Positions 7,045-64,000 of a stretch of 64,000 bases of DNA are shown here, piece by piece. The stretch lies in IMG/VR virus record IMGVR_UViG_3300033074_001909, positions 42,333 to 106,332 of that record; one strand, written 5' to 3'. Each line of letters starts with the position of its first letter. Within the stretch, counting starts at the first letter, position 1. The translations under genes were made by a program, and so were the position numbers. This stretch comes from a virus. Lineage: Duplodnaviria > Caudoviricetes. Under the pieces are notes generated by a model, which was not told where the DNA came from, did not search any database, and saw nothing but the letters and a program-made list of their open reading frames with translations.

Positions 7045-7590
7045 ATGCCACTGCCCGATTTCAAGTTCACGTTCGAGCACGGCACCGCGGTGATCTGGGG
7101 TGAATCCGGCGCCAGCGGCGTTACCAAGACGCTGTCCTTCGATGGGCTCGCGGCGGGCTCGGCGCGGATGGGCGCGGCGGCGGACCTGGGGGAGGACTGG
7201 GACCAGTGGTATTACGTGCAGCTTGTGATTGAAAGCGGCACCGCGCCCACGGCCGCCGGCACGGTCGATTTGTTTTTGCCCTGCTCCTACGACAACAGCA
7301 CGTGGCCGGCTGGTGTCAGTGGCAGCGATGGAGCCTGGCCGAGCGATGGCAACGAGGACGAATGGGCCAAGCAACTGGACAGCGCGTACGTCTGCTCACT
7401 GAAGGCGACCAATGACGCTACCACGGTCCAGCGTCAGGCGCCAGTGTTGTGGCGTCCGAGTGGTCGTTATGTCGTGCCGGTCGTCGACAACAACATGGAT
7501 CAGGCGGTGCGCGACGAGACGACAGCGACCGATAACGACAGCCGGGTGATTCTAGTGCCGGTCCGCTCATTGGTGCAGCAGGCAGCATGA
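7045..7590 (+). CDS. Hypothetical beta-rich protein (putative virion)
   Basis: Stop/start overlap with the next gene; G/A/T/S-rich composition. Confidence 0.55.
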   Translation: MPLPDFKFTFEHGTAVIWGESGASGVTKTLSFDGLAAGSARMGAAADLGEDWDQWYYVQLVIESGTAPTAAGTVDLFLPCSYDNSTWPAGVSGSDGAWPSDGNEDEWAKQLDSAYVCSLKATNDATTVQRQAPVLWRPSGRYVVPVVDNNMDQAVRDETTATDNDSRVILVPVRSLVQQAA

Positions 7591-8435
7591 GAAACCACGT
7601 GCTACAACCGCCGTTTGCCACGGGCGTCCACGACGCGGAGTATCCGCAGTTGTGGAGCGGCATGATGTTTGGATGGTCTGCCAATCTGGGCATCACGGGT
7701 GGCATGATTCGCGACCGGTCTGGCAGGGCGAATCACGGCACGCTGACGAACGCGGACCTGGATACGTATTGGGGACGATCGTACGGTTACGCACGCTTGG
7801 CATTCTTCACTTCCTATGTGACGATACCTCGAAATGGTCGCTTTGATTTTTCAAGCACAAATCTGTTTTGGTCCGCATGGGTTAGTGATTTAACAACAAA
7901 TGGAATTATCTGTAGCACTATATTAAATTCATCGCCGTACTCAGGTTGGGAGATTGCATGTGGGACTATTTCAGCTAATAAGCTCCAATTGTGGAATAGT
8001 AGTGCCTGGGTAGCGAGTACGTCAAATGTAACAGGGACTGGTATTCGTCATTTATGCGTTTTTAACGATGGCGTAAATACTCAATTTTTCATCAACGGAC
8101 AATTAGACGCTACTGTTTCTCATATAAGATCTGCTACTCCAGGTGACTCAAATTTGGTTATTGGTGCAAGAGTGTCTGGATGGAATGCCATGAATTGCCG
8201 TGTTCATGATTTTTACATAGGCACAGCACAAACATCTACAGTTCAATCGCTTGTAACCATGCTGTACTTTCTCGGCCCCGGCGGCTGGGCTCGCCGCAAG
8301 TCGCCCGCGTCGGTGTGCGTGCCGCTCCAGACGCGACCGCCCCTGCGCCGTACCCGCTCGATCACGCCGAATCAATGTGTTGATATCCAGTTTCGGCATC
8401 GCAACATTGGTCATGGAAGGCTGAAAGCCGGATGA
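7587..8435 (+). CDS. LamG/concanavalin A-like domain protein (putative receptor-binding)
   Basis: 'DRSGRANHGTL', 'FWSAWV', 'HLCVFNDG..FFINGQL..NLVIG'; core is AT-rich. Confidence 0.7.
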   Translation: MRNHVLQPPFATGVHDAEYPQLWSGMMFGWSANLGITGGMIRDRSGRANHGTLTNADLDTYWGRSYGYARLAFFTSYVTIPRNGRFDFSSTNLFWSAWVSDLTTNGIICSTILNSSPYSGWEIACGTISANKLQLWNSSAWVASTSNVTGTGIRHLCVFNDGVNTQFFINGQLDATVSHIRSATPGDSNLVIGARVSGWNAMNCRVHDFYIGTAQTSTVQSLVTMLYFLGPGGWARRKSPASVCVPLQTRPPLRRTRSITPNQCVDIQFRHRNIGHGRLKAG

Positions 8436-9970: not shown

Positions 9971-10068
9971 CGAATTTGCGGTGCGGAGTAGACTGGCTGG
10001 CGAAACGGGCTCCTCGACCAGAGGCCCCGTCAGGATCAGGCAGTACCTGATTTGGACGGGGCTTTTTT
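9967..10068 (+). promoter_or_regulatory. Promoter + conserved motif + terminator
   Basis: TTGACG-16 nt-TAGACT; GGCTCCTCGACCAGA at 10008-10022; GCCCCGTC...GACGGGGC then T6. Confidence 0.65.
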
Positions 10069-13095: not shown

Positions 13096-13947
13096 ATGCG
13101 TTATTTCGCGTTACTGCTGCTCTTGTTTGCTCACGAAGCCCACGCCTGCCAGCGGTGTGGTCTGTTTGGGAATCGCTGCCGTTTTGTCTCGAGGCCTGTC
13201 GTGCAACAGCATGTGGTGTCACAACCAGTCGCTGTGGCGCCGGTCGCGACGTATCAATCGCCAGACGTATTCGTTGTGCAGAATAACTACCCGCAGCCGA
13301 ACGGTACGATCGGACTCCTGGCCCAGCAGGGCACGAGCGTGTACGGATATCAGGCCGCGGCCGCAGCGTACTTCGTAAATCCGGCCGAGACTTTGCGGCA
13401 AGCGGCAGAACTCGCCAAGGCGGCCAGTGCGACCGCCTCGATTGGCCTCACGGGCTACAACGAGACGGCACGCACGCAACTGACGCTGCAGGCGGCCATC
13501 GCGGAGCCGCTCGCGAAGGGGCAAGCGGCCGCGCAGGTCTTGGGCGCCGCGGGACTGTCGGCGCCATCCTCGCAGTCGCAATCATTCGCCCTGCGAATCT
13601 CGCAGGACTCCGCCGGACGCTGGCAGGTGACGCAAGCCGACCCCGCGCAAGTGTCCGCGACGGTCCACGCCGAGATCAACGAGCATTCGACGCCGACAGT
13701 TCCTGCGAGGCCCGTCAACGGCGCCTCGGTGCTGGCCGCGAAGTGCGCCCGGTGTCACGGGCTGAATCTCACCGAGCCCAAGGGCGGCATGTTCCTCGAT
13801 GCGGGTCATCCGTTGGACTGCGCTACCGTGGTCAAAGCGATCAAGCAGGTGAAGAGCAATAAGATGCCACCCGACGGTGGGCTGACGGATCAGGAAAAGG
13901 GGTTACTTCTCGACGAACTGCTTTCTCTCGAAAGGGACGGGTCATGA
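13096..13947 (+). CDS. Secreted protein with C-terminal cytochrome c-like domain
   Basis: Signal peptide MRYFALLLLLFAHEAHA; 'KCARCHG...KMPP...LTDQEK' (CxxCH plus candidate distal Met). Confidence 0.7.
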   Translation: MRYFALLLLLFAHEAHACQRCGLFGNRCRFVSRPVVQQHVVSQPVAVAPVATYQSPDVFVVQNNYPQPNGTIGLLAQQGTSVYGYQAAAAAYFVNPAETLRQAAELAKAASATASIGLTGYNETARTQLTLQAAIAEPLAKGQAAAQVLGAAGLSAPSSQSQSFALRISQDSAGRWQVTQADPAQVSATVHAEINEHSTPTVPARPVNGASVLAAKCARCHGLNLTEPKGGMFLDAGHPLDCATVVKAIKQVKSNKMPPDGGLTDQEKGLLLDELLSLERDGS

Positions 13948-15256: not shown

Positions 15257-16777
15257 ATGATGAGACAAGTCTGGTTGGCGGTCCTGTGTCTGGTTGCCGG
15301 CTGGTTGCCGGCTCAAGATCAGCCTTTGCAGTACTCGACTCGCCTGCGGACGGTGGAGCCAGGTGGCAAGTGCCATGTGTGGTTTCCGCAGAACGTGGCT
15401 GGCCCGAGTGGTCGGGGATACATCCCCAAGCTGCCGGTCGGCTGGACGTACGCGTATCCGGGCACTTACGGACGTGGTTGGTCCGAGTGGCATCGCGGAT
15501 GGGCCTGGGAAATTCAGGTCGCGCGGGACGCGCAGCCAGGTGCGTATGCGCTCGATTTCATGGACCAGGGTCAACCAGTTCCCGGGCTGACGCCGATTGT
15601 CGTGACGGTCTGTGCGCCGGCTCCCAAACGGCGCCTGAAGCGGCTGATGTCCGCCACGACGGCCGACCTGCAGTTTTACTTGGACCAGGGTTACGATCTG
15701 GAACTGGGTCCCTTTGAGTTTGTGATTACTACGCCGCTACAAGTGCCGGACGGGGCCCGGATTTGTTCGACCGGTGCGGCTCGCCTAGTGCGGACCGCCG
15801 ACCGCCATCCCGAGAACCATCCTCACCATGAAATGTTCATTCCGGAGGGGCGCTTCACGCTCGAGCGCGTGATACTCACTCACGACGGCACCATGCCGGC
15901 GGAGCCGTTGTACCTGCACAAGTGGCCTCGTGATACCTCACCCACCTGCCCCAATGTGACGGTGACCCAATGCGTGATCGAGCGCGGTTACTTGGGCAAG
16001 GCCACGGAGTCGAACATGGCCGTGGAGCGGTGCCGGTTCGCCGGCGGCGGGACGGGCATCACGCCCCTGAACGGTCGGTACGACTACTGTGAGTTCACTG
16101 GTACTTCCCCGGATCAGAGCCACAGATTCCTGTGCTGGGGAGCCAATGGCTTGCTGCTCACGAATAACCGGTTCGCCGGCACCTCGCGGGGATTTGTGTT
16201 CCAAACGGGGGACGTCGTCGGAGCCGCGTTGCTCGACAACTATTGCACCGGGATCCGCGGGGGTAGCGGCAACGCGAATGAGTGCCTCCTGTTTGAAGCG
16301 GGCACTGGATCGCCCATTGCCTGCGACGACGCACATGGTTGCCGAAATAACCTGGTCGTCGACCTGTGGATCAACGATTGTGCCGGGCCCGGCGTCTCGC
16401 TGTACGGATCCGGGATGCACGACAACCAGTTTTGGGGCGTGGACGCGCACACGGATAACAGCAGCCTGTACGTGATCGCGATCGGCGACGGACAAATCAC
16501 ACGTAACCAGTTTCACAATTGGCAATGCACGGGAGGAGTCGTGTTCCACGGTGATGTGGGACAGGTCACTTTCGGTAATATGCAGCTGCTCGAGTCACAG
16601 CAACGGCGGGGCAACCAAGGGCCGTTTGCACCTGTGATTCGGCACTTCAACGAGCATTATCCGTTCGACCTGGATGAAGAGGCGCGACAAACTGGCGTAT
16701 TCACGCTCTCGGGCGTCGGGCTTCTAATGCCCAACCGGACGTACGTGCCAATCGATGAGCTGACCGGGAAAAAATGA
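15257..16777 (+). CDS. Secreted right-handed beta-helix (pectin lyase-like) protein
   Basis: Signal peptide; repeated 'xxCxF/xxNNxF' beta-helix-like units. Confidence 0.5.
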   Translation: MMRQVWLAVLCLVAGWLPAQDQPLQYSTRLRTVEPGGKCHVWFPQNVAGPSGRGYIPKLPVGWTYAYPGTYGRGWSEWHRGWAWEIQVARDAQPGAYALDFMDQGQPVPGLTPIVVTVCAPAPKRRLKRLMSATTADLQFYLDQGYDLELGPFEFVITTPLQVPDGARICSTGAARLVRTADRHPENHPHHEMFIPEGRFTLERVILTHDGTMPAEPLYLHKWPRDTSPTCPNVTVTQCVIERGYLGKATESNMAVERCRFAGGGTGITPLNGRYDYCEFTGTSPDQSHRFLCWGANGLLLTNNRFAGTSRGFVFQTGDVVGAALLDNYCTGIRGGSGNANECLLFEAGTGSPIACDDAHGCRNNLVVDLWINDCAGPGVSLYGSGMHDNQFWGVDAHTDNSSLYVIAIGDGQITRNQFHNWQCTGGVVFHGDVGQVTFGNMQLLESQQRRGNQGPFAPVIRHFNEHYPFDLDEEARQTGVFTLSGVGLLMPNRTYVPIDELTGKK

Positions 16778-16929: not shown

Positions 16930-17994
16930 ATGACCACGACACGGAGCGAACAACTGTTCGCCATCGTCGACCGATTCAACCAAATCCATCGCGACTGGGC
17001 GGAGTTCGACACGAACAATCCCGAGCCCACGGAGTTGTACTGGCGCGCGCTGCAGGCCGTGCTGGATACGTTCGAAGGGGGCGACCTGCCAGCGGACTGC
17101 CGCCCCATGGCCGCCGCCGTCTACAAACTGGCCCAAGAGCGGGCCCGTTACGATGCCTCCGGGATGACCACGGTGCCGCAGTCGCTGTTTGCCGCGCGCG
17201 AGGAACTGGAGCGGGTAGCCCGGGCCGCACGCTCGCCGCTTGAGCGTCCCCATCGGGAAACTATTCAGGAACTGGCCAAGCAGAACGTCCCCCATGAGCA
17301 GATTGCCCGTATTTGGGGCCTGCGCCGCCCGGACGGTACGGGCCGGGCCGACCTCGTCCAGCAGGAACTGAATCAGCCCGGTTCGGTGATCGGGCCCAAC
17401 TATGTGCATCCCGAGGACCGCATGGCGCATGACCAAGTGCTGGTCGAGCGCCGCAACTGGCAGGCTTTGGAGGTGCTCAGCCAGAAGGAGCAGGAACGGA
17501 TCGAGGCGGATCAGAAGCCCTGTCCCGAGACGCCGCGGGAACTGTGGCTGATTGGGGTCAGCACGGCGCAGGCGGCGAGGATGTTGCGGCAGCCGCAAGA
17601 GCAGGTGGCCCGCCTGTGGGACGAGTTCGAACGGGAAAAGGTCGCGATTCAGACGGCGCAGGAGCGCCCGGCGCCCGTAGCGCCGCCCGCACCGGCGGTG
17701 GTAACTCCGCCGCCGGTGGCCGAAGCGGCCACGGCCGATCCGCTGGACGACATGCTGGGCGCAGCCGGCGACAGTCCCTACGCGCAGTTTGACGGCTGGA
17801 GCGAGCAGGAACTGCGGATCGAAGCCAAACGCCTGGGAATTCGCCTGCGAGGCCGCTTCACGCGTGAAACGCTGATGGATCGCATTTTGGCCGCGGATCC
17901 CACGGCAGAATTGGTGGATGACGACAGCGTCGCGGGCGTCGATGAGTTCGACCACGAGGGCGTGACGGTCGGCGAGACGGAGGAACCAACGTAA
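16930..17994 (+). CDS. Hypothetical protein with C-terminal HeH/Rho-N-like motif
   Basis: 'WSEQELRIEAKRLGI..TRETLMDRI'. Confidence 0.55.
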   Translation: MTTTRSEQLFAIVDRFNQIHRDWAEFDTNNPEPTELYWRALQAVLDTFEGGDLPADCRPMAAAVYKLAQERARYDASGMTTVPQSLFAAREELERVARAARSPLERPHRETIQELAKQNVPHEQIARIWGLRRPDGTGRADLVQQELNQPGSVIGPNYVHPEDRMAHDQVLVERRNWQALEVLSQKEQERIEADQKPCPETPRELWLIGVSTAQAARMLRQPQEQVARLWDEFEREKVAIQTAQERPAPVAPPAPAVVTPPPVAEAATADPLDDMLGAAGDSPYAQFDGWSEQELRIEAKRLGIRLRGRFTRETLMDRILAADPTAELVDDDSVAGVDEFDHEGVTVGETEEPT

Positions 17995-18401: not shown

Positions 18402-19004
18402 ATGGGCAAACGCCGGATCAAACCGAGTGAACGCAAGCCGGTCGAGCCACCGCGCAAGCGGCGACGCGGCGTGGTGGACGAACCACCGGACCAAACGCCG
18501 CCCGATCCCGAGCAGACCAGCCCGTTCGAACACCTGCGGAACCCCAACCAGCGAATATTCCTGCGGGTGTACTGTCAGTGCTGGAGCATTACGCAGGCGG
18601 CCGAGGCGTCGGGCCTGTCGATATGGGCGCATTACTACTGGAAACGCACGGATGCGCTGTACCGGCGCGCGTTTGTCCTAGCCTGGAAAATCGCTGGGGA
18701 CCGGTGCGAGGAAGAGGCGTATCGCCGGGCGGTGACGGGTCTTCGCCGCTTGAAGTTTGGGCCGAAAGGCAAGCCGCTGATTGATCCCGCCACGCGCCAG
18801 CCCTACGTGGAGCACGAATTTTCGGATCGGCTGCTCGAGCGGCTGCTGAAAGCCTTCAAACCACATCGCTATTGCGACCGGCAGGAGACGCAGCACAACG
18901 TGTCGGTGGATAGTCCCGCGCAGGGCAGTGGGGGCATGACGGATCTCTTAAAGACCTTCTGTGATACACCACCAGAGTCCCCCGAATCTGCCGCTGCACC
19001 ATGA
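18402..19004 (+). CDS. terS: Terminase small subunit
   Basis: HTH 'SITQAAEASGLS..HYYW', 'EEEAYRRAVTG', 'FSDRLLERLLKA'; directly upstream of terL. Confidence 0.75.
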   Translation: MGKRRIKPSERKPVEPPRKRRRGVVDEPPDQTPPDPEQTSPFEHLRNPNQRIFLRVYCQCWSITQAAEASGLSIWAHYYWKRTDALYRRAFVLAWKIAGDRCEEEAYRRAVTGLRRLKFGPKGKPLIDPATRQPYVEHEFSDRLLERLLKAFKPHRYCDRQETQHNVSVDSPAQGSGGMTDLLKTFCDTPPESPESAAAP

Positions 19005-21624
19005 GTCGATCCGCGACTGGCTGCACGCGGCGGCCACGATTCCGATTCAGTGGCGACGTCGGAAGTATCTGCGCGACTGCCTGCGGGCCTCGTCCGAGTT
19101 GCGGGCCAAGTTGATCGAGAAGAACGACAGCCGGTTGACCACCCATATCCAACGGCTGTTCACGCATCCCTATTTCGCGTTCGAGCCCCGGCCCGATAAT
19201 CCCGCCGCCGGCGATCAGCAGACCGGGTTTCTGGAGTCGCAGGCCTTCACGACAGTGGCTCTGGGAGGCACGGGTAGCGGCAAGAGCTACATCGGCTCAC
19301 AACGGGCCATCAAGTTCCTCTGCGAGGATCAGCGACCGCCAATCAAGGACACGCCCTTCTTCGTGATCGCCGACAACCTGGAGGAATCCTCCAAGGCTTG
19401 CTGGGCGCAGAAACTCCACGATCTGTTGCCGCGGGAGTGGGTCGACTGGGACCGCATTACCTGGCGCAGCGCGAAGATGAATTTTCCGCGCATCGTGCCG
19501 CTGCGGCCCTGGCAGGACGACCCCAAGACGAACTGGGCGATTTACTTCTGCGGCTACACCCAGGACCGCAAGGCCTTCCAGGCCATCGCGGCCGGCGGCG
19601 CGTGGTTCACGGAACAATTCCCGTACGACATCTACGAGGAAGTCGTCGGGCGTATGCGACAATGGATGTTCAACGGCGCTCTGTGGCTGGAATTCACGCC
19701 GCTGGATCCGACCGACAGCGTCAAAGTCCAGGAGCTGTACGAGAAGTGGACGCGGGGCGAGCTCGACGAGGATCAATGGTCGTTCTACCGCCTCAACACC
19801 GAAGAAGCGGCGAAGAAGGGACACGTCAAGCAGGAGTTTGTCGACACGCTCAAGGCGACGATCTCACCCGAGATGCTCGCTACCCGCTTGCGCGGGGATT
19901 TCGGCTCCTACGAGGGTGTGATCTATCAGAGTCTCAACCCGCTAGTGCATTTCGTGCCCGGGACGCAATACGACAAGTGTCCGCGCGATATTAACCTGAC
20001 GTACAAGCGAGGCATCGACTGGGGCGCCGGCCCATCGAATGCGTTTGTCGTCTTGTGGGGCGCCAAGGATTCCATGGGCCGCTGGTTCATTTTCGACGAG
20101 TATTACACCACGGATCAGCTCATGACCTGGGAAGATCACGTGCGGGAGATTCACAAGAAGGATGGGTGGAAACTCATTGGCCAGATAGACCGCGGTCTGA
20201 CGACGTACCGCCTGGAGCCGATCCCAGGCGTGCCGCAGCGGTGGATTTACGAGCGCTCGAATTTTGGCCAGACCTACGCGCCACCCGAGCAGCCGGACTT
20301 ATTCCGTGAGTTCGCGAAATACTGCCTGCCCGTGACGCCAGCCCGGAATGCCTTTCACCCCGGCGTGGATTGCGTGCGGCGGCATTTGAAATTCGACGAC
20401 TTCACGCTCGAGCAGCGGACCGAGCCGCAACTGTTCATCGATCGGCGCGCGTGCCCAAATCTGGCAAGAGAACTGCCAGCGCTGCAGTGGAAAGACCCGC
20501 CCAAGGCAGGCGTGAATCCTTCAAGCGCCAAGATGGAACAGAAAAAAATACATGACCACTCCTGCACGATTTCTTCGACGCTCGTGTTGACGGAATCGGG
20601 ATGGAAGCCAATTATCGAGATCCAGCGAGGCGAGATGGTGGCCTCGCTCGACGGCTGGACTCGGGTGGAATGCGGAGCGGTCAAGACGGGCGTAAATCGC
20701 CCATTGGTGCGAATCACGTTGGACAATGGGGCCGAGGTGGTGTGTACTCCCTGCCATCGGTTCCCGACGGAGGATGGATCATGGATCGCGGCGGAACACC
20801 TGCTGGGCCGACGTTTGGCGAAGTGGTGCGATACACCACCAGGAGTGGGCAGATGGCGGAATCCATCGAGTACGGCGGAATGGTGTGGCGACGATACCCC
20901 AACTCGCGATTCCCGGCTGCTCGCTACTTCGTCAAGCGAGTTGGTAAGCGGCCTGATGCCATTCTTCTCCATCGCAGGATCTACGAAGATTTTGTGGGAC
21001 CAATTCCAAAGGGAATGGCCATCCATCACAAAGACGGGTGCATTACCAACAACCACCCATCCAACCTGGAACTTTGCACGTTCCGGGATCATTCACAAAA
21101 GCATGTGTCCGACAATGTCAACATGCGACAAGGCTTACGCGAGTGGCGACAGAAGCAGCCAGGACAACTTCGTCAAATCGCGAAAAATGCCAGCGACGCC
21201 TACTGGAGTGATCCACGCGTGGTCAGCCTTACTTGCTCGCATTGCGGCATCGCGTTTTCGTCAAAGGACGTGCGCACTAACCGAAAGCGATACTGCTCTG
21301 GTGCATGCAATCGGCAGGCGTTGCGAACCGAAAAGCGGCTATGCAAACATTGTGGCCAGGAGTTCTTGGCGGCATCCTTCGAGCCAAACGTCTTTTGTAG
21401 CAAGCGGTGCTCTGCGTGTTATGGAGGTATCCTCCTGCGGAACCGCCGACACGTACTGCATCGCGACTGAGTCGGGTTCGATGGTGTGGGGAGGCGGAGT
21501 CGTGGCGTCAAACTGTGATGCATTGCGCTACCTGCTATACTCCGACTGGATGGGCAACACGGGTGGCATCGAAGCCTTCCAGGCCCCGCAGCCGCATCGT
21601 CCGCAAGTGCGATTAAGGAAATGA
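18961..21624 (+). CDS. terL: Terminase large subunit containing an intein
   Basis: Walker A GGTGSGKS, nuclease 'GIDWG', C-terminal 'DHS|CDALRY' split by an intein. Confidence 0.9.
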   Translation: MIHHQSPPNLPLHHESIRDWLHAAATIPIQWRRRKYLRDCLRASSELRAKLIEKNDSRLTTHIQRLFTHPYFAFEPRPDNPAAGDQQTGFLESQAFTTVALGGTGSGKSYIGSQRAIKFLCEDQRPPIKDTPFFVIADNLEESSKACWAQKLHDLLPREWVDWDRITWRSAKMNFPRIVPLRPWQDDPKTNWAIYFCGYTQDRKAFQAIAAGGAWFTEQFPYDIYEEVVGRMRQWMFNGALWLEFTPLDPTDSVKVQELYEKWTRGELDEDQWSFYRLNTEEAAKKGHVKQEFVDTLKATISPEMLATRLRGDFGSYEGVIYQSLNPLVHFVPGTQYDKCPRDINLTYKRGIDWGAGPSNAFVVLWGAKDSMGRWFIFDEYYTTDQLMTWEDHVREIHKKDGWKLIGQIDRGLTTYRLEPIPGVPQRWIYERSNFGQTYAPPEQPDLFREFAKYCLPVTPARNAFHPGVDCVRRHLKFDDFTLEQRTEPQLFIDRRACPNLARELPALQWKDPPKAGVNPSSAKMEQKKIHDHSCTISSTLVLTESGWKPIIEIQRGEMVASLDGWTRVECGAVKTGVNRPLVRITLDNGAEVVCTPCHRFPTEDGSWIAAEHLLGRRLAKWCDTPPGVGRWRNPSSTAEWCGDDTPTRDSRLLATSSSELVSGLMPFFSIAGSTKILWDQFQREWPSITKTGALPTTTHPTWNFARSGIIHKSMCPTMSTCDKAYASGDRSSQDNFVKSRKMPATPTGVIHAWSALLARIAASRFRQRTCALTESDTALVHAIGRRCEPKSGYANIVARSSWRHPSSQTSFVASGALRVMEVSSCGTADTYCIATESGSMVWGGGVVASNCDALRYLLYSDWMGNTGGIEAFQAPQPHRPQVRLRK
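20563..21513 (+). mobile_element. Intein (317 aa) in TerL
   Basis: Starts with Cys (CTISSTLVLTESGWKPI), block B 'CTPCHRF', ends '...VVASN' before Cys+1. Confidence 0.85.
20853..21470 (+). CDS. HNH homing endonuclease nested in an alternative frame inside the TerL intein
   Basis: SD AGGAG at 20841-20845; 'LHRRIYEDFVGPIPKGMAIHHKDG..NNHPSNLEL'; C-terminal CxxC zinc ribbons. Confidence 0.85.
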   Translation: MAESIEYGGMVWRRYPNSRFPAARYFVKRVGKRPDAILLHRRIYEDFVGPIPKGMAIHHKDGCITNNHPSNLELCTFRDHSQKHVSDNVNMRQGLREWRQKQPGQLRQIAKNASDAYWSDPRVVSLTCSHCGIAFSSKDVRTNRKRYCSGACNRQALRTEKRLCKHCGQEFLAASFEPNVFCSKRCSACYGGILLRNRRHVLHRD

Positions 21625-22559
21625 CCATGGCACGACTGAATGCCTCCCAGCGTCGGCAGGTCATCCGGAACGCGACCCGCGAACTGCGCCGCTCGGGCGG
21701 ACGTCGCAGCGGATCGGGAGAGCCTGGCCCGTTGGGCGGCCTATTCCGCACGCTGGGGGCCCGCTTCGGGCCGCTGGGCGAGGTCATCGGCATGCTCGGG
21801 GATATCCTGTCCGGCGGACGGCGGGTGACCCGGCGCAATATCGAAGACGCGGTGCGGATCCTGACCGAAGAGGGATTTGAAGTCGCGCCAGCGCCACCGG
21901 AGGCGCCCCCGGTAATTGTGCAGCCTCCGCCGGTGGTGCCGCGTGGGGTACGCCCGGCCCCCGCGGTGCCGCCGGCATCGATTCCGCCGCTGCCGCCACA
22001 GGAACCGGCCGATCCGTGGCCCGCCGAACATTCGGTCCGGATTCTGCCGCGCCGTGTGCGAGGCGTCTACGACAGTATCCCGGCCGACATCGACACCTTC
22101 CAGGGCTGGATCCTCACGCCCCAGAGCTCCAACGTGCATGCGGTCGCGTACCACGAGGGTATCCTCTACGTGTGGTATCGGGCCGCTGGCAAGCCGACCG
22201 GGTACAAGGACGGGATCTCGTTATGCACCGGGAAGGCCTATAAGATCGGGATCCGGCCCGACGTGCCGGGCCCGATCTACTCGTATGGTGGCGCAGGCCG
22301 TCCGGTGCCACAGTCGGTGTTTGACGCGATTGCCACGTCGCGTTCGCCAGGCAAGCAGGTCTGGGACAAGTTGCGCGTGTGCGGATCGCAGTGGCAGCAT
22401 CAGTACGTGTACACGCTGACCGATGTGCCCATGGGTCAGGCGGTGCCCCGCAAGGCGACGCGTCGCGGGTTGGCGGTGCGCAATGTCCCCAATGTCGGTC
22501 TGGGGCCACGTGGATCTCGCCGTAGCACGCTGCCCGCACGTGTGGCGGGGATCCGGTAA
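21621..22559 (+). CDS. KTSC-like domain protein
   Basis: 'SSNVHAVAYHEGILYVWY...YSY...VPQSVFDAIATSRSPGK'. Confidence 0.6.
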   Translation: MTMARLNASQRRQVIRNATRELRRSGGRRSGSGEPGPLGGLFRTLGARFGPLGEVIGMLGDILSGGRRVTRRNIEDAVRILTEEGFEVAPAPPEAPPVIVQPPPVVPRGVRPAPAVPPASIPPLPPQEPADPWPAEHSVRILPRRVRGVYDSIPADIDTFQGWILTPQSSNVHAVAYHEGILYVWYRAAGKPTGYKDGISLCTGKAYKIGIRPDVPGPIYSYGGAGRPVPQSVFDAIATSRSPGKQVWDKLRVCGSQWQHQYVYTLTDVPMGQAVPRKATRRGLAVRNVPNVGLGPRGSRRSTLPARVAGIR

Positions 22560-22573
22560 TTGGCTCCGCATTC

Positions 22574-22628
22574 GTTGAATGCCCGCGCAGTGGCTTCGTT
22601 GCTGCGAGTACAGGTCGACCCACGCCTT
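22574..22628 (+). CRISPR. Solitary Cas12m-type repeat + 20-nt guide-length segment (plus strand)
   Basis: GTTGAATGCCCGCGCAGTGGCTTCGTTGCTGCGAG at 22574-22608 (stem CGCAGT/GCTGCG kept), then TACAGGTCGACCCACGCCTT. Confidence 0.75.
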
Positions 22629-22808
22629 TGGGCAAGAGCCAAGCCTCTGCGCGGGCACTTCGACCGGTTGGGACGAGTTCTGCGCAGCCCAAATCCGGAA
22701 CGCTCGCAGAAACAAAGCCCCTGCGCGGGCACTTCGACTTGTCGACAACCTGGATCCGGTCGAGCACCGGCTCTCGCAGGAACAAAGCCCCTACGCGGGC
22801 ATCATCGC
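22629..22808 (-). CRISPR. Orphan mini-array: 3 repeats, 2 spacers (34 and 38 nt)
   Basis: Repeats at 22773-22808, 22703-22738 and 22629-22664 are reverse complements of the main-array repeat, e.g. GTCGAAGTGCCCGCGCAGGGGCTTTGTTTCTGCGAG. Confidence 0.9.
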
Positions 22809-23008
22809 TCTAACCTGGGCCGGCCTTCGCTCCGCGGTCGACTGAGTCCCCCGCGAATCGACTTCGGTAGTTTCGCCGCGCCCGCATCACGCAGCCATTC
22901 CGACAGCGATTTACCTTCCTTCGCGGCCGCCGCCAGAAAGGCCGTCCACCAATCCTGCGGCGCCGTGATGTTGCGGCGGATCGTATCGTCTCCATGGGGC
23001 TCTGTCAT
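22802..23008 (-). CDS. Small ribbon-helix-helix regulator
   Basis: 'RRNITAPQDWWTAFLAAAAKEGKSLSEWLRDA'. Confidence 0.65.
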   Translation of the reverse strand: MTEPHGDDTIRRNITAPQDWWTAFLAAAAKEGKSLSEWLRDAGAAKLPKSIRGGLSRPRSEGRPRLER

Positions 23009-23021
23009 GCCGGTGATCCTA

Positions 23022-25398
23022 TCACGTCGTGACCGTTATCTGCAGGGTGGCTTTCTCGCGAGTCCAGCCATGCTGCCGCAGCATCCGCGCCTCGAGCAGT
23101 TCCACGCGGTCAAGGCACTGCTGGAGAAATCCCTGTGGCAGATCATAGTCGAGCCCCCAGAACCACTTCACAACCAGCCAGGTTTGGCGGTCGGTGATTG
23201 GTTTCGCGAGTTCCCGCTCCAGGCGGGTAGAAATAGCTTGCGTGGTGGTCATGGTTTGGACGCTCCATTGATTCGGAGTAGGTGCAGCTCGAATCGGTCC
23301 TTCTCTTCCTGCGTCGCTGGCCGAATCTCAACCGTTTCGCCCGCCTGCAAGGCTGCTTGCACATTAGACCAGTCCGACCGAATGCCTCCTGCGGTGTACA
23401 AGCACGACATGAGCGTTGCGCTGTCGTGGTAAAAATGCTCGCCGATGTAAATCAGTTTCATGGTCTTCATGGTCATGCTCCTTGTGAAGAAAATATCGAC
23501 CGTTGGCCGCGAATGGCCGGCGTCAGCATGCGGGCCGCTCCCCTCGCGGGTCGCGGAAACCACCGGCGACGGTCGTCGCGCCGGATCGACGCCGCAGCCC
23601 ACCTGCCGGACCGCATGACCGGGTGGCCGTCAGGATTGCGGGCTGCGGCGGTTTAGTCAGGTATGCTGGCGGCATCCGCGTACCGGAACGCAAACCCCGG
23701 CCCAGTGGCATCGACGAGATACCGGATGCCGGAATCTCCACGATAATTCCGAGAGCCCATCGACCGGGGCACCGGCGTTGAGCCCGGTGACGTGGTGTCC
23801 CGTGGGCATACACTCGATCAGCATCCGCTCGAACTCATCCGTCGGAAGGATACGTGCCACGTCGCGTCGTGGCACATCGGTGCGCCGCGAGCCGAAGCCA
23901 ATATTCCGGCGCCCGGTGATGATGAGTTCGTCGCCAATACGCTCGATGGTGTCACTGATTTTCATGATTCTCTCCGTGATCGAATGCCGCCTTGGGACGG
24001 CCGCCGGGCTCACCAGAGCCCGGCGGGGCATTAGGCCGCGAAAGCGGCCCCCTCTGCATCTACCCGTCGTACTTGACGCGCACAACGCAATGCCAGCCGG
24101 CCGCACCGTGCCAGGACATGGGCTCCTCGTCCTCCTGGCCGTCGACGTCCGGCGACGTGTCAGCCATGCCGCACTCGCCGCAAAACGTCAGGCCGCAGCC
24201 GTCCGGTGCCTCGTAGACTCGATATCGCGTGGCCATGGTCGTCTCCTTGTGTCTCTGCTACTCAGCCGCCTGGATGATTTTGGCGACATCCAGATCGCCG
24301 TTGCACGCCGCGTAAATCGGATCGCCATCCGTGTATTCTTCGCCTGGATCGTCCAGGCTGTCTACCATTCGCTCGGCAGCAGCGGTTACCTGCTCGGGCG
24401 TCAGCTTGGCCGCCACAAACGCATTGGCGGTGGCGGCATCCCAAACGCCAATTTCACACCACGGACGCGCCGTAGCGGCGGTGAAACCGTAATCGATCCA
24501 GTTCTCGGCCTCGTCCTTCGGGTGATTGCCAGTAAACATGCCGCCGTGGTTGCTGAGCATTTCCATCATGTCTTGAAGATCCCGATCGATGGTCGTCATG
24601 GTCGTGTCTCCTCGTGAAAGAAAATCTGGTCGCCGAGCCGCCCCATCGGCTACACAATGTTCGTCGCCTCAGGAATCACTCCGTAGCGATTCAGCAGCCC
24701 CACACGCCGTCGCGCGGCTGCTTCTGCCTGCTCTTGCGATGGATAGCCGCCGTTGCACCACGTGGCGTCGCCGATGTCGATGCGGTAGCCAAAACATCCA
24801 GCACTGTAGCCTTCCGGATTCTCGATGATCGTGATGTTGGCTTGCGGGCGTCGTTCGGTCATGGTCGTGTCCTCGTCTTCGTGTTGGATAAAACCGGGGC
24901 GGCCCGAAGGCCGCCCCTCCGTGGGCGTCAGAGCGACTCTACCGCAGCGAAACGGCTGCGGTAGTCCGCCGGGGTCATTCGCTCGGCTGTTACTGCCCCG
25001 GCTGCGTCCAGCCGGAGCAGCGTGTACAGCCAGTCCCTCCGGCCGCGATAGCCGGAGGTGACGATGATGATGCCCGTCGAGGGCACCCGAAAGACAGCGG
25101 CGGCGAAATCGTTGCCGCCGCTCGACGAGGTGGCTACGACCCCGGTCGGTTCGACCGGTGGCAGTTCTTTCGTGGCAACTGTCTTCGCCTGCTCGGGGCA
25201 GGCGAAGCCGTGGAACGTTCCCGCGTCATCTGCGTGCCACAGCACGCAGATGCCTGGGGACAGGCCAATCTTACGGTCGCCGATCGTGGCGACCTGGCCG
25301 TCGGCGTCGACTGCCAGCGACACACGCCGGCAGTTCGCGCCGGCTTGGCCGGACACGCTTTGCCCCGCCTTAATTCCGAGCAACATATTCGTGGACAT
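23022..25398 (-). other. Cluster of small minus-strand genes (23022-23252, 23249-23476, 23657-23965, 24060-24236, 24258-24599, 24650-24862, 24928-25398), putative early region
   Basis: Each gene has a similar GGAG/GAGGA...ATG ribosome-binding context; hairpins in the intergenic gaps. Confidence 0.65.
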
Positions 25399-25440
25399 GA
25401 GAATCTCCGTTCGTGGAAGTGGCTTGGTTGTGATGCGTAT

Positions 25441-46529: not shown

Positions 46530-47279
46530 ATGACCGCCCCGCAATTATTTGCCAGCTACTGGCCCGAGGGACCGCATCGCTGCTACTACTGCGGCGGGCG
46601 ATGCGACGAGACGCATCGAGCTGCTGATCTGGTCCAGTCGTCGTTTACCGCACGTGATACCGTGGCTGGCGGTGAGTACGTGTGCCCTGGCTGCATCGCT
46701 GCGATGGACGAGAGGGCCACGATTACGCTGGCCGACGGCGAAGTGCGCGAAGGCCAGCGGGTCCGCTGCTACTCCTGGGTCATCACTGCCGAAGCGGCGA
46801 TCGCTGCCACCAAAGCTCATCGCGCGTGGCTGACAGGAGCGTGCCTGTCGCCTCCAGAACCGCCCTACGTCATCTCGATCAGCGACAGCGGGCAACGGCA
46901 CCTGCTGTATCGTGCCGTCGTATGCCATTCTCGCGAGATCATTACCGCCACTCTGGAGGGCGAGCGGGTAACATTCACACCCTATGAGCTTGACGAGCGG
47001 TTGACGCTGTGTCGCAAACTGATCGCGGCAACCGGCAAGCCGGCTCTGTCCGAAGCACCGACTGCACGATTCGGCATGTCGGTAGTCTCGCATCACGACG
47101 ACGAATCACTGATCTCCACGTGGCTGGAATGTCGCGAGCAACCGCTGTCTCGCCTGGCGGCGTGGCTCTCGCCTCCCAAGGAGGAATGCTTACTTGAGTT
47201 CCCAGCACCAGCAGCTCCCGCCCCCACTGCCTGTGCTCGACACCGAGCAGTTCAGGCAACGTTTAGCTGGCTTGATTGA
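46530..47279 (+). CDS. csf1: Type IV CRISPR Csf1 (Cas8-like large subunit)
   Basis: CxxC...CxxC zinc finger; 'PPEPPYVISISDSGQRHLLY'; operon context. Confidence 0.8.
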   Translation: MTAPQLFASYWPEGPHRCYYCGGRCDETHRAADLVQSSFTARDTVAGGEYVCPGCIAAMDERATITLADGEVREGQRVRCYSWVITAEAAIAATKAHRAWLTGACLSPPEPPYVISISDSGQRHLLYRAVVCHSREIITATLEGERVTFTPYELDERLTLCRKLIAATGKPALSEAPTARFGMSVVSHHDDESLISTWLECREQPLSRLAAWLSPPKEECLLEFPAPAAPAPTACARHRAVQATFSWLD

Positions 47280-47667
47280 CCAGCGATCCGAAGTGGACGC
47301 CGAAGATTTCGCCAGCGTGGCGGCGTGCGCTATCCATTTTGTCTCGTCGCTGCCGATTGTGTTCGGCGAGCAGCTCGAGCGCACCACACTGTGGGATAAG
47401 ATCGGCGCCGCCCTGGATACCGCTTACGCCAAGACCGCCGCCGATGATTGCGACTTCTTTATCAGTCGCGTGCTGGAGTCGATCCTGGCTTCTCCGGCGG
47501 CCGTCGCTCGCTGTGAGGCCATCGGCCAGGTGATAACGTGGCTCTCCGCTGCGCCGACTGAGATGCGGCACGCGTGGCTGCAGTACATCGCCACGCACCG
47601 CTATGCCGTGCTCGTACGCGCTCGCATGGCCTGGGAGCAGCAGAAGGAGGCTCGCGCCAATGCCTGA
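47194..47667 (+). CDS. cas11: Type IV-B small subunit (Cas11-like)
   Basis: Small helical protein between csf1 and csf2; RBS AAGGAGG. Confidence 0.6.
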   Translation: MSSQHQQLPPPLPVLDTEQFRQRLAGLIDQRSEVDAEDFASVAACAIHFVSSLPIVFGEQLERTTLWDKIGAALDTAYAKTAADDCDFFISRVLESILASPAAVARCEAIGQVITWLSAAPTEMRHAWLQYIATHRYAVLVRARMAWEQQKEARANA

Positions 47668-48544
47668 GACCTATACGATCCTCTGCGTGAGTGAAGCCGC
47701 CTCGCCAATCACGCACATGAGCGGCAGCGCCGGCAATGAGGCGATTATCGCTCGTGCGCCCGTGATGACGGATCGCGGGAAACTGTGGATACCATACCTC
47801 TCAGGTAATGCCCTGCGCCACCGTTGCGTGCGAGATCCAGGCGTGGATTTCCTTTTGGATCTTTACGAACTGCGAGGCAAACTTACACTGCCGCAGCTCA
47901 ATTTCCTGCGGCACGGCGGAAATCTCACGGAGTCCACCGCACACGAGAACACGGCCCGCATCGCCGAGATGAAACGCACTTGGCCGCTACTGCGATTGCT
48001 GGGTGGCTCGTTGCCAAACCAGATCCTGGCCGGCAGCCTGCAAGTCTGGCGTGGTGAACTGGTGTGCGAGGAAAACCGCCAATACCTGGCCACGCTCGGA
48101 GACTGGCTGCCCACGCGGCGACTCAAGGCTGCCGAGGAGTTCATCGGGAACTACCAGTACACGCGCGGCGATGCCGCGAAGTCCGGCGAGGCTCAGGCGG
48201 AGGAGGATCGCGAGAGCAATCTGATGATCTTCGCTGGCCAGCAGGTCAATCGTGGCTCGCTGTTTGTGCATGGCTTCGTGGCGCCTCACGCGTCGCGCGT
48301 CGAACTGGGCGCGCTGCTGCTGTCGCTCCGACTCTGGCAGTCCCGCGGCGGGACGATCGGCGGACAAGCGGCGCGCGGCCACGGCCGGCTGGCGATGTCC
48401 CTGGTCGGTGCGATCGACCAGTCGTGTGTGGACGAGTACGTCGAGTACGCGATCAGCGTGCGAGATGCGGCGATCGCGTGGCTTGAGGACTGCTTTGCGA
48501 AGCGAGCCGACAAGCCAGCGAAGACAAAGAAGGTGAAGGCATGA
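47660..48544 (+). CDS. csf2: Type IV CRISPR Csf2 (Cas7-like RAMP)
   Basis: 'SPITH', 'PYLSGNALRH', 'LRLLGG', 'IGGQAARGHG'; RBS AAGGAGG. Confidence 0.85.
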   Translation: MPETYTILCVSEAASPITHMSGSAGNEAIIARAPVMTDRGKLWIPYLSGNALRHRCVRDPGVDFLLDLYELRGKLTLPQLNFLRHGGNLTESTAHENTARIAEMKRTWPLLRLLGGSLPNQILAGSLQVWRGELVCEENRQYLATLGDWLPTRRLKAAEEFIGNYQYTRGDAAKSGEAQAEEDRESNLMIFAGQQVNRGSLFVHGFVAPHASRVELGALLLSLRLWQSRGGTIGGQAARGHGRLAMSLVGAIDQSCVDEYVEYAISVRDAAIAWLEDCFAKRADKPAKTKKVKA

Positions 48545-49206
48545 GCCTGCTCGTGATCGCGCACCTATCGTCGCCGCTGGCCGGTGATGCGCCGATGCTG
48601 GACGGACTGCTCGAGTTCGAGATGTCGCAGAGACTCGGTGCGGCGTATAAGGTCCGCCGCGATCAGCCTGCACCGCCCGCCGGAGCGATCCATATTCCGA
48701 TGCTGCGGCGCGGTATCGGCGGTTGGAGTGTTCCGCTCTGCTCGTCACCGATCTACACCGCCGAGAGTGATCGGCATGAGTACATCGGCAAGCGGCTGGC
48801 GGTCGAGCACGCCAGTGATTTACGCGAGGATGCACGGCTGGTCGTGGCGATGGGCAACGCGACCTACAAGTCATATCGCCTACCGCTGCGAGTGAGGAAT
48901 GTGTCACGCGTGGCGTGGTTCTGCGAGGGGCATCGATCGCCGATTTTGAAGCTGCTCAAATCGGTACACGCGATCGGCCGGAAGCGGTCAGATGGATACG
49001 GTCGCGTGGCGCGATGGACTGGCGAGAACGTGGATGGCAATCATCACTGGTACGGCGAGAGCGAGCACGGCCCGGTGCTCATGCGACCGCTGCCGTTTGG
49101 CGACTGGCTGCCGCGCAGCCTGCTCGGCGCGAAGCGAGATTTCGGTGCGGTCGTCGCGCCGTACTGGCATCCTGATCGCTATGCGGAGATTGTGGTGCCA
49201 TGCTGA
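48541..49206 (+). CDS. csf3: Type IV CRISPR Csf3 (Cas5-like RAMP)
   Basis: 'LDGLL', 'IGRKRSDGYGRV', 'MRPLP', 'PYWH'. Confidence 0.85.
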   Translation: MSLLVIAHLSSPLAGDAPMLDGLLEFEMSQRLGAAYKVRRDQPAPPAGAIHIPMLRRGIGGWSVPLCSSPIYTAESDRHEYIGKRLAVEHASDLREDARLVVAMGNATYKSYRLPLRVRNVSRVAWFCEGHRSPILKLLKSVHAIGRKRSDGYGRVARWTGENVDGNHHWYGESEHGPVLMRPLPFGDWLPRSLLGAKRDFGAVVAPYWHPDRYAEIVVPC

Positions 49207-49931
49207 TTCGCACTGCTCGCCACACGGCCGCAGACCTGGCATTGTGGGAGTCGCTCGAGGACGCCGACATTCTGAGGCAGGACGTGGCCGCCTATCGCGC
49301 ACGGTACGCTGAGGCGCTGCACGCGATCGCCGCGTTTACATCCGCAGGCGAGTGCTACGCCGGCATCAGTTGGGGGAAGGACTCTACCGTGCTGGCTCAT
49401 CTGATCCAGTGCGTCGCGCCTGACACGCCACTAGCCTGGACGCGAGTAGAACCGATCGCCAATCCAGACTGTGTGCTCGTGCGAGATGCGTTCCTGCGAT
49501 TGCATCCGCACGCGAACTATCACGAGATCACGGAGTGGTGTGAGTGGCGCGATGGAGAGTGGCACGCCACTGGCACGCTCGAAAGCGGCATCGCCAAGTG
49601 CCGAGAACGATGGGGAGAGCGGACGATACTCGGTATTCGAGCCGAGGAGAGCACCCAGCGTGGGTTCCGCATTTGGCGCCACGGACTATCGACGGATCGG
49701 TCGTGTGATCCACTGGGACGCTGGCGCATCGAGGACGTGATGACCTGCCTGGCAATCGAGGGACTGCCGGTGCATCCGGCTTACGCCATGCTGGGAGGCG
49801 GGCGCTGGCCGCGAGAGCAACTGCGGGTCTCGTCGCTCGGCGGTCGTCGCGGCGATGGCCTCGGGCGAGCAGAGTGGGAGCGCGAGTATTACGGCGATGT
49901 GGTGCGACGGCTGGCCATGACGGACACCTGA
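49200..49931 (+). CDS. PAPS-reductase (CysH)-like protein of the type IV-B system
   Basis: PP-loop 'SWGKDS', 'GIRAEES..R', 'PLGRW...DV', 'LPVHPAY'. Confidence 0.85.
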   Translation: MLIRTARHTAADLALWESLEDADILRQDVAAYRARYAEALHAIAAFTSAGECYAGISWGKDSTVLAHLIQCVAPDTPLAWTRVEPIANPDCVLVRDAFLRLHPHANYHEITEWCEWRDGEWHATGTLESGIAKCRERWGERTILGIRAEESTQRGFRIWRHGLSTDRSCDPLGRWRIEDVMTCLAIEGLPVHPAYAMLGGGRWPREQLRVSSLGGRRGDGLGRAEWEREYYGDVVRRLAMTDT

Positions 49932-59847: not shown

Positions 59848-59955
59848 CTCGCAGAAATCAAGCCTCTGCGCGGGCACTTCAACGATCCCGACCGGGAATA
59901 CGTGATGTCCGGACTTGACCTCGCAGACACAACGCCTCTGCGCTGGCATTCGCGC
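59848..59955 (-). CRISPR. Orphan mini-array: 2 repeats, 1 spacer (36 nt)
   Basis: Repeats at 59920-59955 (GCGCGAATGCCAGCGCAGAGGCGTTGTGTCTGCGAG) and 59848-59883 (GTTGAAGTGCCCGCGCAGAGGCTTGATTTCTGCGAG). Confidence 0.9.
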
Positions 59956-63628: not shown

Positions 63629-64000
63629 GTTGAAGTGCCAGCGCAGAGGCGTTGTTTCTGCGAGACCGGATAATTACACATCGGTCGAGATCGAGCAGGC
63701 GGGTTGAAGTGCCCGCGCAGAGGCGTTGTTTCTGCGAGGGGTGCCGATTAGCCCATCGCTTGACCGGCCTACGGATGTTGAAGTGCCAGCGCAGAGGCTT
63801 TGTTTCTGCGAGTCGACCGTCTGGGAGGATGAGCCGCGGGGTGCCGTCGTGTTGAAGTGCCCGCGCAGAGGCTTTGTTTCTGCGAGCCTACGAGGACCTA
63901 GAGACGTACGTCGTCTCATCGACGTTGAAGTGCCCGCGCAGAGGCTTTGTTTCTGCGAGCGTTCTGGATTCGAGCAGCTGGGCGGACAGATCTTCGTGGA
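63629..64000 (+). CRISPR. CRISPR array, at least 5 repeats (36 nt) with 37-38-nt spacers, probably continuing past the window edge
   Basis: Repeats at 63629-63664, 63703-63738, 63777-63812, 63851-63886 and 63924-63959; consensus GTTGAAGTGCCCGCGCAGAGGCTTTGTTTCTGCGAG. Confidence 0.97.

Follow-up and report, generated by a model that had tools for sequence, protein, structure and literature searches.

Type V-M CRISPR systems (Cas12m, formerly V-U1) are known from plasmids and some prophages, and virus-borne mini-arrays, solitary repeat decoys, and regulatory mini-arrays are all established (PMC11656645, PMC10651486, bioRxiv 10.1101/2023.03.03.530964). In type V-M systems such as those of MmCas12m2, GoCas12m, and MsCas12m, the 36-nt repeat forms a stem and a pseudoknot (PMC10442227, PMC11013384). 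Characterised Cas12m proteins use a single crRNA of 50 to 60 nt and need no tracrRNA (PMC11013384), and in the cryo-EM structure of Cas12m2, crRNA nucleotides -36 to -30 are unmodelled, with cleavage upstream of the scaffold (PMC10442227). Virus-borne mini-arrays carry one or two spacers without adaptation genes, borrow host Cas proteins, copy host repeats, and are likely used in competition between elements (Faure 2019, Medvedeva 2019, reviewed in PMC11656645). Solitary repeat units, or RNA anti-CRISPRs, are repeat copies outside arrays that mimic the repeat, having neither a usable spacer nor a cognate cas gene (PMC10651486). Regulatory crRNA-like mini-arrays (CreR/crlRNA, scaRNA) consist of two or three repeats, one of them degenerate, and have a spacer that partially matches the promoter of a cas or associated gene (bioRxiv 10.1101/2023.03.03.530964).

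Here, we scrutinized a window of 64,000 nt, the last 64 kb of a single virus record of 106,332 bp whose ends overlap through a repeat and a spacer, closing to a circle of 106,253 bp. The genome encodes a large terminase and a DUF1559/prepilin-type protein with its best relatives in Gemmataceae and other Planctomycetota (up to 62% identity), and the phage was detected in wastewater, sludge, and aquatic metagenomes from about ten studies. The record is a circular phage genome of ~106 kb, with wastewater Planctomycetes as the putative host. On the minus strand, positions 22808 to 22629 are a genuine second mini-array, with three repeats (R1 to R3) and two spacers (A1 and A2), of the phage's own Cas12m CRISPR system (Table 1). 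The initial annotation had proposed such an array about 39 kb from cas12m; on re-reading, the array and both spacer sequences matched exactly, and the distance to the effector gene (61489) was measured at 38.7 kb.

Table 1. Repeat loci, CRISPR genes, and neighbouring genes of the phage. Positions are those of the window, except where marked as contig positions (full record).
Feature	Position	Strand	Remarks
Repeat 1 (R1)	22773..22808	-	model score 43.1 bits, E 1.9e-07
Spacer A1, 34 nt	22739..22772	-	unique in genome
Repeat 2 (R2), full length	22703..22738	-	54.3 bits; 2 differences from consensus
Spacer A2, 38 nt	22665..22702	-	unique in genome
Repeat 3 (R3), terminal	22629..22664	-	37.3 bits
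Gap between converging R3 and R4, 20 nt	22609..22628		
Repeat 4 (R4), scaffold intact, opposite strand	22573..22608	+	45.6 bits
KTSC-like gene, 312 aa, converging on array	21621..22559	+	relatives with KTSC domain PF13619
Arc/RHH-like gene, 68 aa; stop inside R1	22802..23008	-	phrog_6506 Arc-like repressor, E 0.00097, weak
Two small ORFs upstream of Arc-like gene, 76 aa and up to 117 aa	23022..23602	-	no family match
Type IV effector genes csf1, cas11, csf2, csf3	46530..49206	+	no adjoining array
Mini-array B: repeat degenerate only in first 7 nt, 36-nt spacer, full repeat	59848..59955	-	
Cas12m-like effector, 672 aa	61489..63507	+	PDB 23vw_A Cas12m E 1.6e-40; 8hhl Cas12m2 4.5e-14; PADLOC Cas12u1 1.2e-75
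Main array, five repeats in window	63629..64000	+	crosses contig junction; 13 repeats in total, 12 spacers of 35-38 nt
Scaffold-only cluster, 7 units	contig 15385-15713 (outside window)	+	intergenic
Scaffold-only cluster, 4 units	contig 17645-17839 (outside window)	+	intergenic

Read along the minus strand, the order is R1, A1, R2, A2, R3, and the repeats are copies of the 36-nt main-array repeat. The hairpin adjoins the spacer, as expected for type V, and the orientation is that of the cas12m-adjacent array and of the array in L004, an IMG/VR contig whose own Cas12m is just 27% identical and which has an 11-repeat array at 7526-8251. When a 24-nt repeat pattern was searched with up to three mismatches, the window gave 8 matches against 0.00 expected (100 shuffles), those outside the mini-array falling in the plus-strand array that runs from 63629 to the window end and in the two-repeat unit of mini-array B. 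The latter sits about 300 nt upstream of the DUF1559 gene preceding cas12m, diverging from that gene, and its spacer had no match in the genome.

Alignment to the repeat consensus bore out what had been described for the individual repeats. R1 is changed at six of its first 7 nt (GCGATGA vs GTTGAAG) and at three of the remaining 29, all within the stem, and each of these three substitutions preserves pairing. The resulting stem, CGTAGG/CCTGCG, has one U-G wobble and one fully compensated pair, and the 29-nt scaffold (columns 8-36) is intact. In R2, the stem (CGCAGG/TCTGCG) is kept through a G-U closing pair, and the 5' end, GTCGAAG, is the same as in the trailer-end repeats M11-M13 of the main array. 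R3 is intact over its 5' 24 nt, with divergence after column 24 extending over the 3' 12 nt and leaving four of the six stem pairs. Both spacers, at 34 and 38 nt vs 35 to 38 nt across the 12 main-array spacers, are preceded by an intact scaffold and followed by the intact 5' end of a repeat. Degeneration affects 7 nt at the start of R1 and 12 nt at the end of R3, neither of which a cassette of two guides would need.

A covariance model built from 30 repeat copies of this genome was run over the 106-kb contig, where 30 to 31 copies at five loci scored at least 35 bits and everything else scored at most 15.3 bits. These loci were the main array, the mini-array together with R4, mini-array B, and the two intergenic clusters. 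Across the copies, 95% of cells in the 6-bp stem are paired, two pairs show compensated changes, and 0 to 1 of 500 shuffles reached the observed covariation. GCC (columns 9-11) and GGC (columns 20-22) form a second stem, paired in every copy and with one compensated change; taken with the 6-bp stem, it gives a pseudoknot topology. The L004 repeat and the phage repeat have in common the GTCGAA start, the GCC/GGC pseudoknot, and a covarying stem, and when the stems of both were combined, 97.6% of cells were paired, with 25 double-change cells and a covariation that no shuffle of 500 reached. Overall, the covariation tests gave 95 to 98% paired cells, 7 to 25 double-change cells, and 0 to 1 of 500 shuffles. 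Covariation across the 30 copies and against a distant Cas12m array thus supports the predicted stem and pseudoknot.

The initial annotation had placed the mini-array itself under structural selection. That claim stands for the repeat family, whose stem is constrained, whereas the mini-array contributes only three substitutions (p about 0.02-0.04, a rough estimate of our own). Since three pair-preserving changes in R1 have a few-percent chance of arising, the locus alone is weak in this respect, and the family covariation carries the structural argument. Columns 8-36 alone are conserved in R1, in the first repeat of mini-array B, and in nine of the 11 cluster units, the other two (C3 and D3) having most of the first 7 nt as well. 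In the Cas12m2 crRNA, the ordered part is equivalent to this 29-nt core.

By its repeat family, its unique spacers of the usual length, the intact scaffold 5' of each spacer, and the cognate effector in the same genome, the mini-array is a type V-M array. Its repeat has the length, stem, and pseudoknot of the known systems, and the phage effector is homologous to theirs (Table 1). Unlike them, it lies far from its effector and in a phage rather than on a plasmid, lacks a leader of its own, starts within the end of a protein gene, and abuts an inverted repeat copy. It resembles virus-borne mini-arrays in its two spacers, the likely role in competition between elements, and the absence of adaptation genes. 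In contrast to those that depend on host Cas proteins and host-like repeats, however, its repeats go with an array and an effector of the phage itself, and the searches with A1 and A2 revealed no target in a related virus. The mini-array is a secondary array of a phage-encoded V-M system, a modest addition to the known virus-borne mini-arrays and no new kind of system; taken alone, it is what one would expect in a mobile element that bears CRISPR. Less usual are that it begins within the end of a gene, that an inverted repeat converges on it, and that the genome also contains scaffold-only clusters and a type IV operon.

R1 runs over the end of the Arc-like gene, overlapping its final two codons and its TGA stop (22804-22802), in agreement with the reported overlap of the array with the stop codon of this RHH gene. 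The gene and the two small ORFs upstream of it are on the same strand as the array and have gene-like codon GC. No terminator-like site was found between the small genes and R1, and no leader was found for the mini-array. A sigma-70 scan returned only a weak promoter-like site, at the start codon of the Arc-like gene, which was not used. From the common strand, the stop-codon overlap, and the lack of an intervening terminator-like site, we infer that the mini-array is co-transcribed with the small-gene cluster; the label 'early operon' that the initial annotation gave to this cluster is a guess. On the other side, the KTSC-like gene that converges on the array comes after the large terminase gene (18961-21624). 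Among the assembled contigs of one metatranscriptome run, one reached R2 by way of the repeat, and it belongs to the main-array tail; none covered A1 or A2, which speaks neither for nor against expression.

With a little more belief than doubt, we read the mini-array as a working orphan cassette that gives two Cas12m guides via read-through from the Arc-like repressor gene. Transcription of the minus-strand small-gene cluster would run through the Arc-like stop codon into R1. Since an intact scaffold precedes each spacer and an intact repeat 5' end follows it, Cas12m could bind the 29-nt scaffolds through the GCC/GGC pseudoknot stem and the 6-bp stem, cut upstream of each, and so release two crRNAs, one with A1 and one with A2; the partly lost stem of R3 makes 3' processing of the A2 guide uncertain. 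Once loaded, the guides would be expected from the behaviour of the family to direct PAM-dependent DNA binding and silencing of their targets. These are most likely rival mobile elements, and transcription of the guides would be controlled separately from that of the cas12m-adjacent array. If the cassette is active, the phage could place Cas12m guides under a promoter programme other than the main array's and so choose when during infection competitors or host genes are silenced. R1 is also a natural example of the smallest scaffold (29 nt) needed by Cas12m, which is useful for compact guide design. A functional two-guide cassette had been preferred to random decay from the outset; the confinement of loss to dispensable parts favours that view, although no target or PAM was found and R4 had been overlooked.

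R4, absent from an account that was otherwise right about the three minus-strand repeats, is a plus-strand copy located 14 nt past the stop of the KTSC-like gene. On a single transcript, it is complementary to R2 over 29 nt at 90% and to R3 and R1 at 81%, and it can form a duplex of 26 to 29 bp with a repeat of the mini-array. The computed hairpin of R3 with the R4 complement has a free energy of -47.9 kcal/mol (z -3.7), and in a longer fold the R4 complement pairs with R2 instead of R3. In these folds, the anti-repeat can tie up R2 or R3 in a duplex, in competition with the scaffold fold. An inverted repeat copy beside an array, capable of such a duplex, is reminiscent of a tracrRNA-type anti-repeat, but characterised Cas12m proteins need no tracrRNA (PMC11013384), and R4 still folds as a scaffold when read on its own strand, for which reason we take it for a converging repeat more readily than for a dedicated anti-repeat. 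At the boundary of two converging units, the R4/R3 hairpin may serve to end or stabilise the transcript.

The position of that hairpin, exactly between the two converging units, also fits a different account, in which the repeats work mainly in cis within phage transcripts, as Cas12m scaffolds or RNA hairpins, and the 'spacers' are incidental. Such elements could mark the end of the converging small-gene and terminase units, where they might terminate the transcript, protect its 3' end, let Cas12m cut polycistronic RNA, or titrate Cas12m. The eleven scaffold-only units point the same way: their gaps are 3 to 23 nt, stem changes among them are compensated, and the last unit of the first cluster stops 1 nt before an ATG start codon. 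The two clusters flank a cassette of cupin, FkbM-methyltransferase, and Methyltransf_24 genes, and their short gaps had no match elsewhere in the genome. Clusters with gaps of this size suggest that scaffold copies are kept in this phage for reasons beyond ordinary guides, and, as these spacers are too short for ordinary guides, a non-guide role is possible. No targets were found for any guide of the mini-array, which suits incidental spacers. A1 and A2 are nevertheless of normal spacer length, unlike the cluster gaps, and A2 resembles a main-array spacer. R2 and R3 retain the full repeat 5' end that scaffold-only units do not need, the hairpin has no U-tract after it, and Cas12m activity on mRNA has not been described. 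We consider a mainly cis-acting role unlikely, if the most serious of the alternatives to a guide cassette.

More doubtful is the proposition that the mini-array is a functionless relic, a fragment of the main-array trailer that was moved or duplicated by repeat-mediated recombination and is slowly decaying. In its favour, R2 and R3 have the GTCGAAG 5' end of M11-M13 and of L004, which ties the cassette to the old end of the main array. Spacer A2 agrees with main spacer M5 (window 63960-63995) at 15 of the first 19 nt and then diverges, whereas the next best pair agrees at 10 and none of 2,000 shuffles reached 15. A2 may thus be a diverged copy of M5, as a relic would suggest, or the two may be guides against variants of one site, as the guide cassette would have it. 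The truncated or degenerate state of R1 and R3, the rearrangement suggested by the inverted copy, and the lack of targets and leader add to the case for decay. Against it, degeneration is limited to what a two-guide cassette can dispense with, and the R1 scaffold substitutions keep pairing in 3/3 cases. The locus is also kept in contigs from three other studies, which span the mini-array at 97 to 99% identity without rearrangement, a coarse strain comparison that covers at most 3% divergence. One further metagenome contig aligned over A2 with eight indels and was considered as evidence of spacer turnover; its depth is unlike the bridging contig's, so that it is probably a cross-mapped repeat-spacer unit of another array, and it was not counted.

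A wider use of scaffolds in phage mRNAs, likewise improbable, would have Cas12m cut, end, or regulate the phage's own transcripts, with the cuts releasing stage-specific guides and coupling expression to guide supply. Its nodes, located between genes and where operons end, would be R1-R4, mini-array B, and the two clusters around the methyltransferase cassette, and the type IV complex might take up released RNAs. With its scaffold-only clusters and type IV operon, the genome offers a compact test bed for phage-borne, binding-type CRISPR systems.

As the initial annotation had suggested, A1 and A2 were searched for targets; the phage genome, IMG/VR, GenBank phages, and a sample of 401 Planctomycetota genomes contained no convincing protospacer or PAM, and mobile elements of Planctomycetes are scarce in these databases. 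In IMG/VR, the 20-nt seed of A1 had 0 matches. A degenerate A2/M5 seed had two matches, both in unrelated genes and judged to be chance. The first 28 nt of each spacer, with up to three mismatches, gave 0 matches in the 401 genomes, and when the mini-array and a portion of the main array were compared with GenBank phages by blastn, all hits had E>0.1. When all spacers were compared with the phage genome by BLAST, only main spacer M8 matched, at 31 of 35 nt (window 10005-10039) over a terminator-like hairpin; the 18-nt core of this match recurs after a second hairpin (contig 13278-13295). The site may be a self-like target with seed mismatches or a motif common to rival phages, and the match would fit a system aimed as a whole at related phages.

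Viral solitary repeats and mini-arrays are known to act as decoys or regulators (PMC10651486; bioRxiv 10.1101/2023.03.03.530964; 10.1101/2024.10.29.618823), and the cassette might accordingly be an RNA anti-CRISPR that blocks a host or rival Cas12m, or a crRNA-like regulator of cas or phage genes acting through a partial promoter match. R4 and the scaffold-only clusters do resemble solitary repeat units. R1-R3, in contrast, flank full-length spacers, and the cognate cas12m is encoded by the phage itself, which together make inhibition of a host system unlikely; the mini-array is not a repeat mimic lacking a usable spacer and a cas gene. The exact repeat was, moreover, absent from GTDB genomes, JGI metagenomes, and IMG/VR. 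The count of two or three repeats, one degenerate, is shared with regulatory mini-arrays. Unlike these, the phage array is not beside cas genes, and neither A1 nor A2 has a partial match elsewhere in the genome (at least 12 of the first 13 nt, or at least 15 of the first 18), including at a cas or associated promoter. Either role is very improbable. Least probable of all is that the cassette guides the array-less type IV complex instead of, or besides, Cas12m: csf1, cas11, csf2, and csf3 are present without an array, and no cas6 was found for them, but the repeat is of the Cas12m type in its architecture, its covariation with the distant Cas12m array, and its Cas12m2 scaffold layout (PMC10442227), has no type IV repeat features or Cas6, and at the mini-array is no more linked to the type IV operon than at the other repeat loci. 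The fifth ORF of the type IV region (49200-49931) had no Pfam or PADLOC match at E 0.001.

Relatives of the locus were sought with the same repeat model, which had no match in three Planctomycete genomes and none in Virus Rctr197k, and in the L004 record matched the main array only. The 312-aa neighbour protein has relatives in marine phage contigs at no more than 51% identity, none of which had a repeat-model match at the corresponding site; closer relatives, at 75% identity, exist in Logan contigs. Beyond the mini-array, two stretches of the window varied among metagenome contigs. Window positions 24057-25411, 1.2 kb from the mini-array, were replaced or skipped in contigs from three other studies, marking a variable accessory region. 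At 20565-21517, one contig skips exactly 951 nt inside the terminase gene and represents an allele without the insert.
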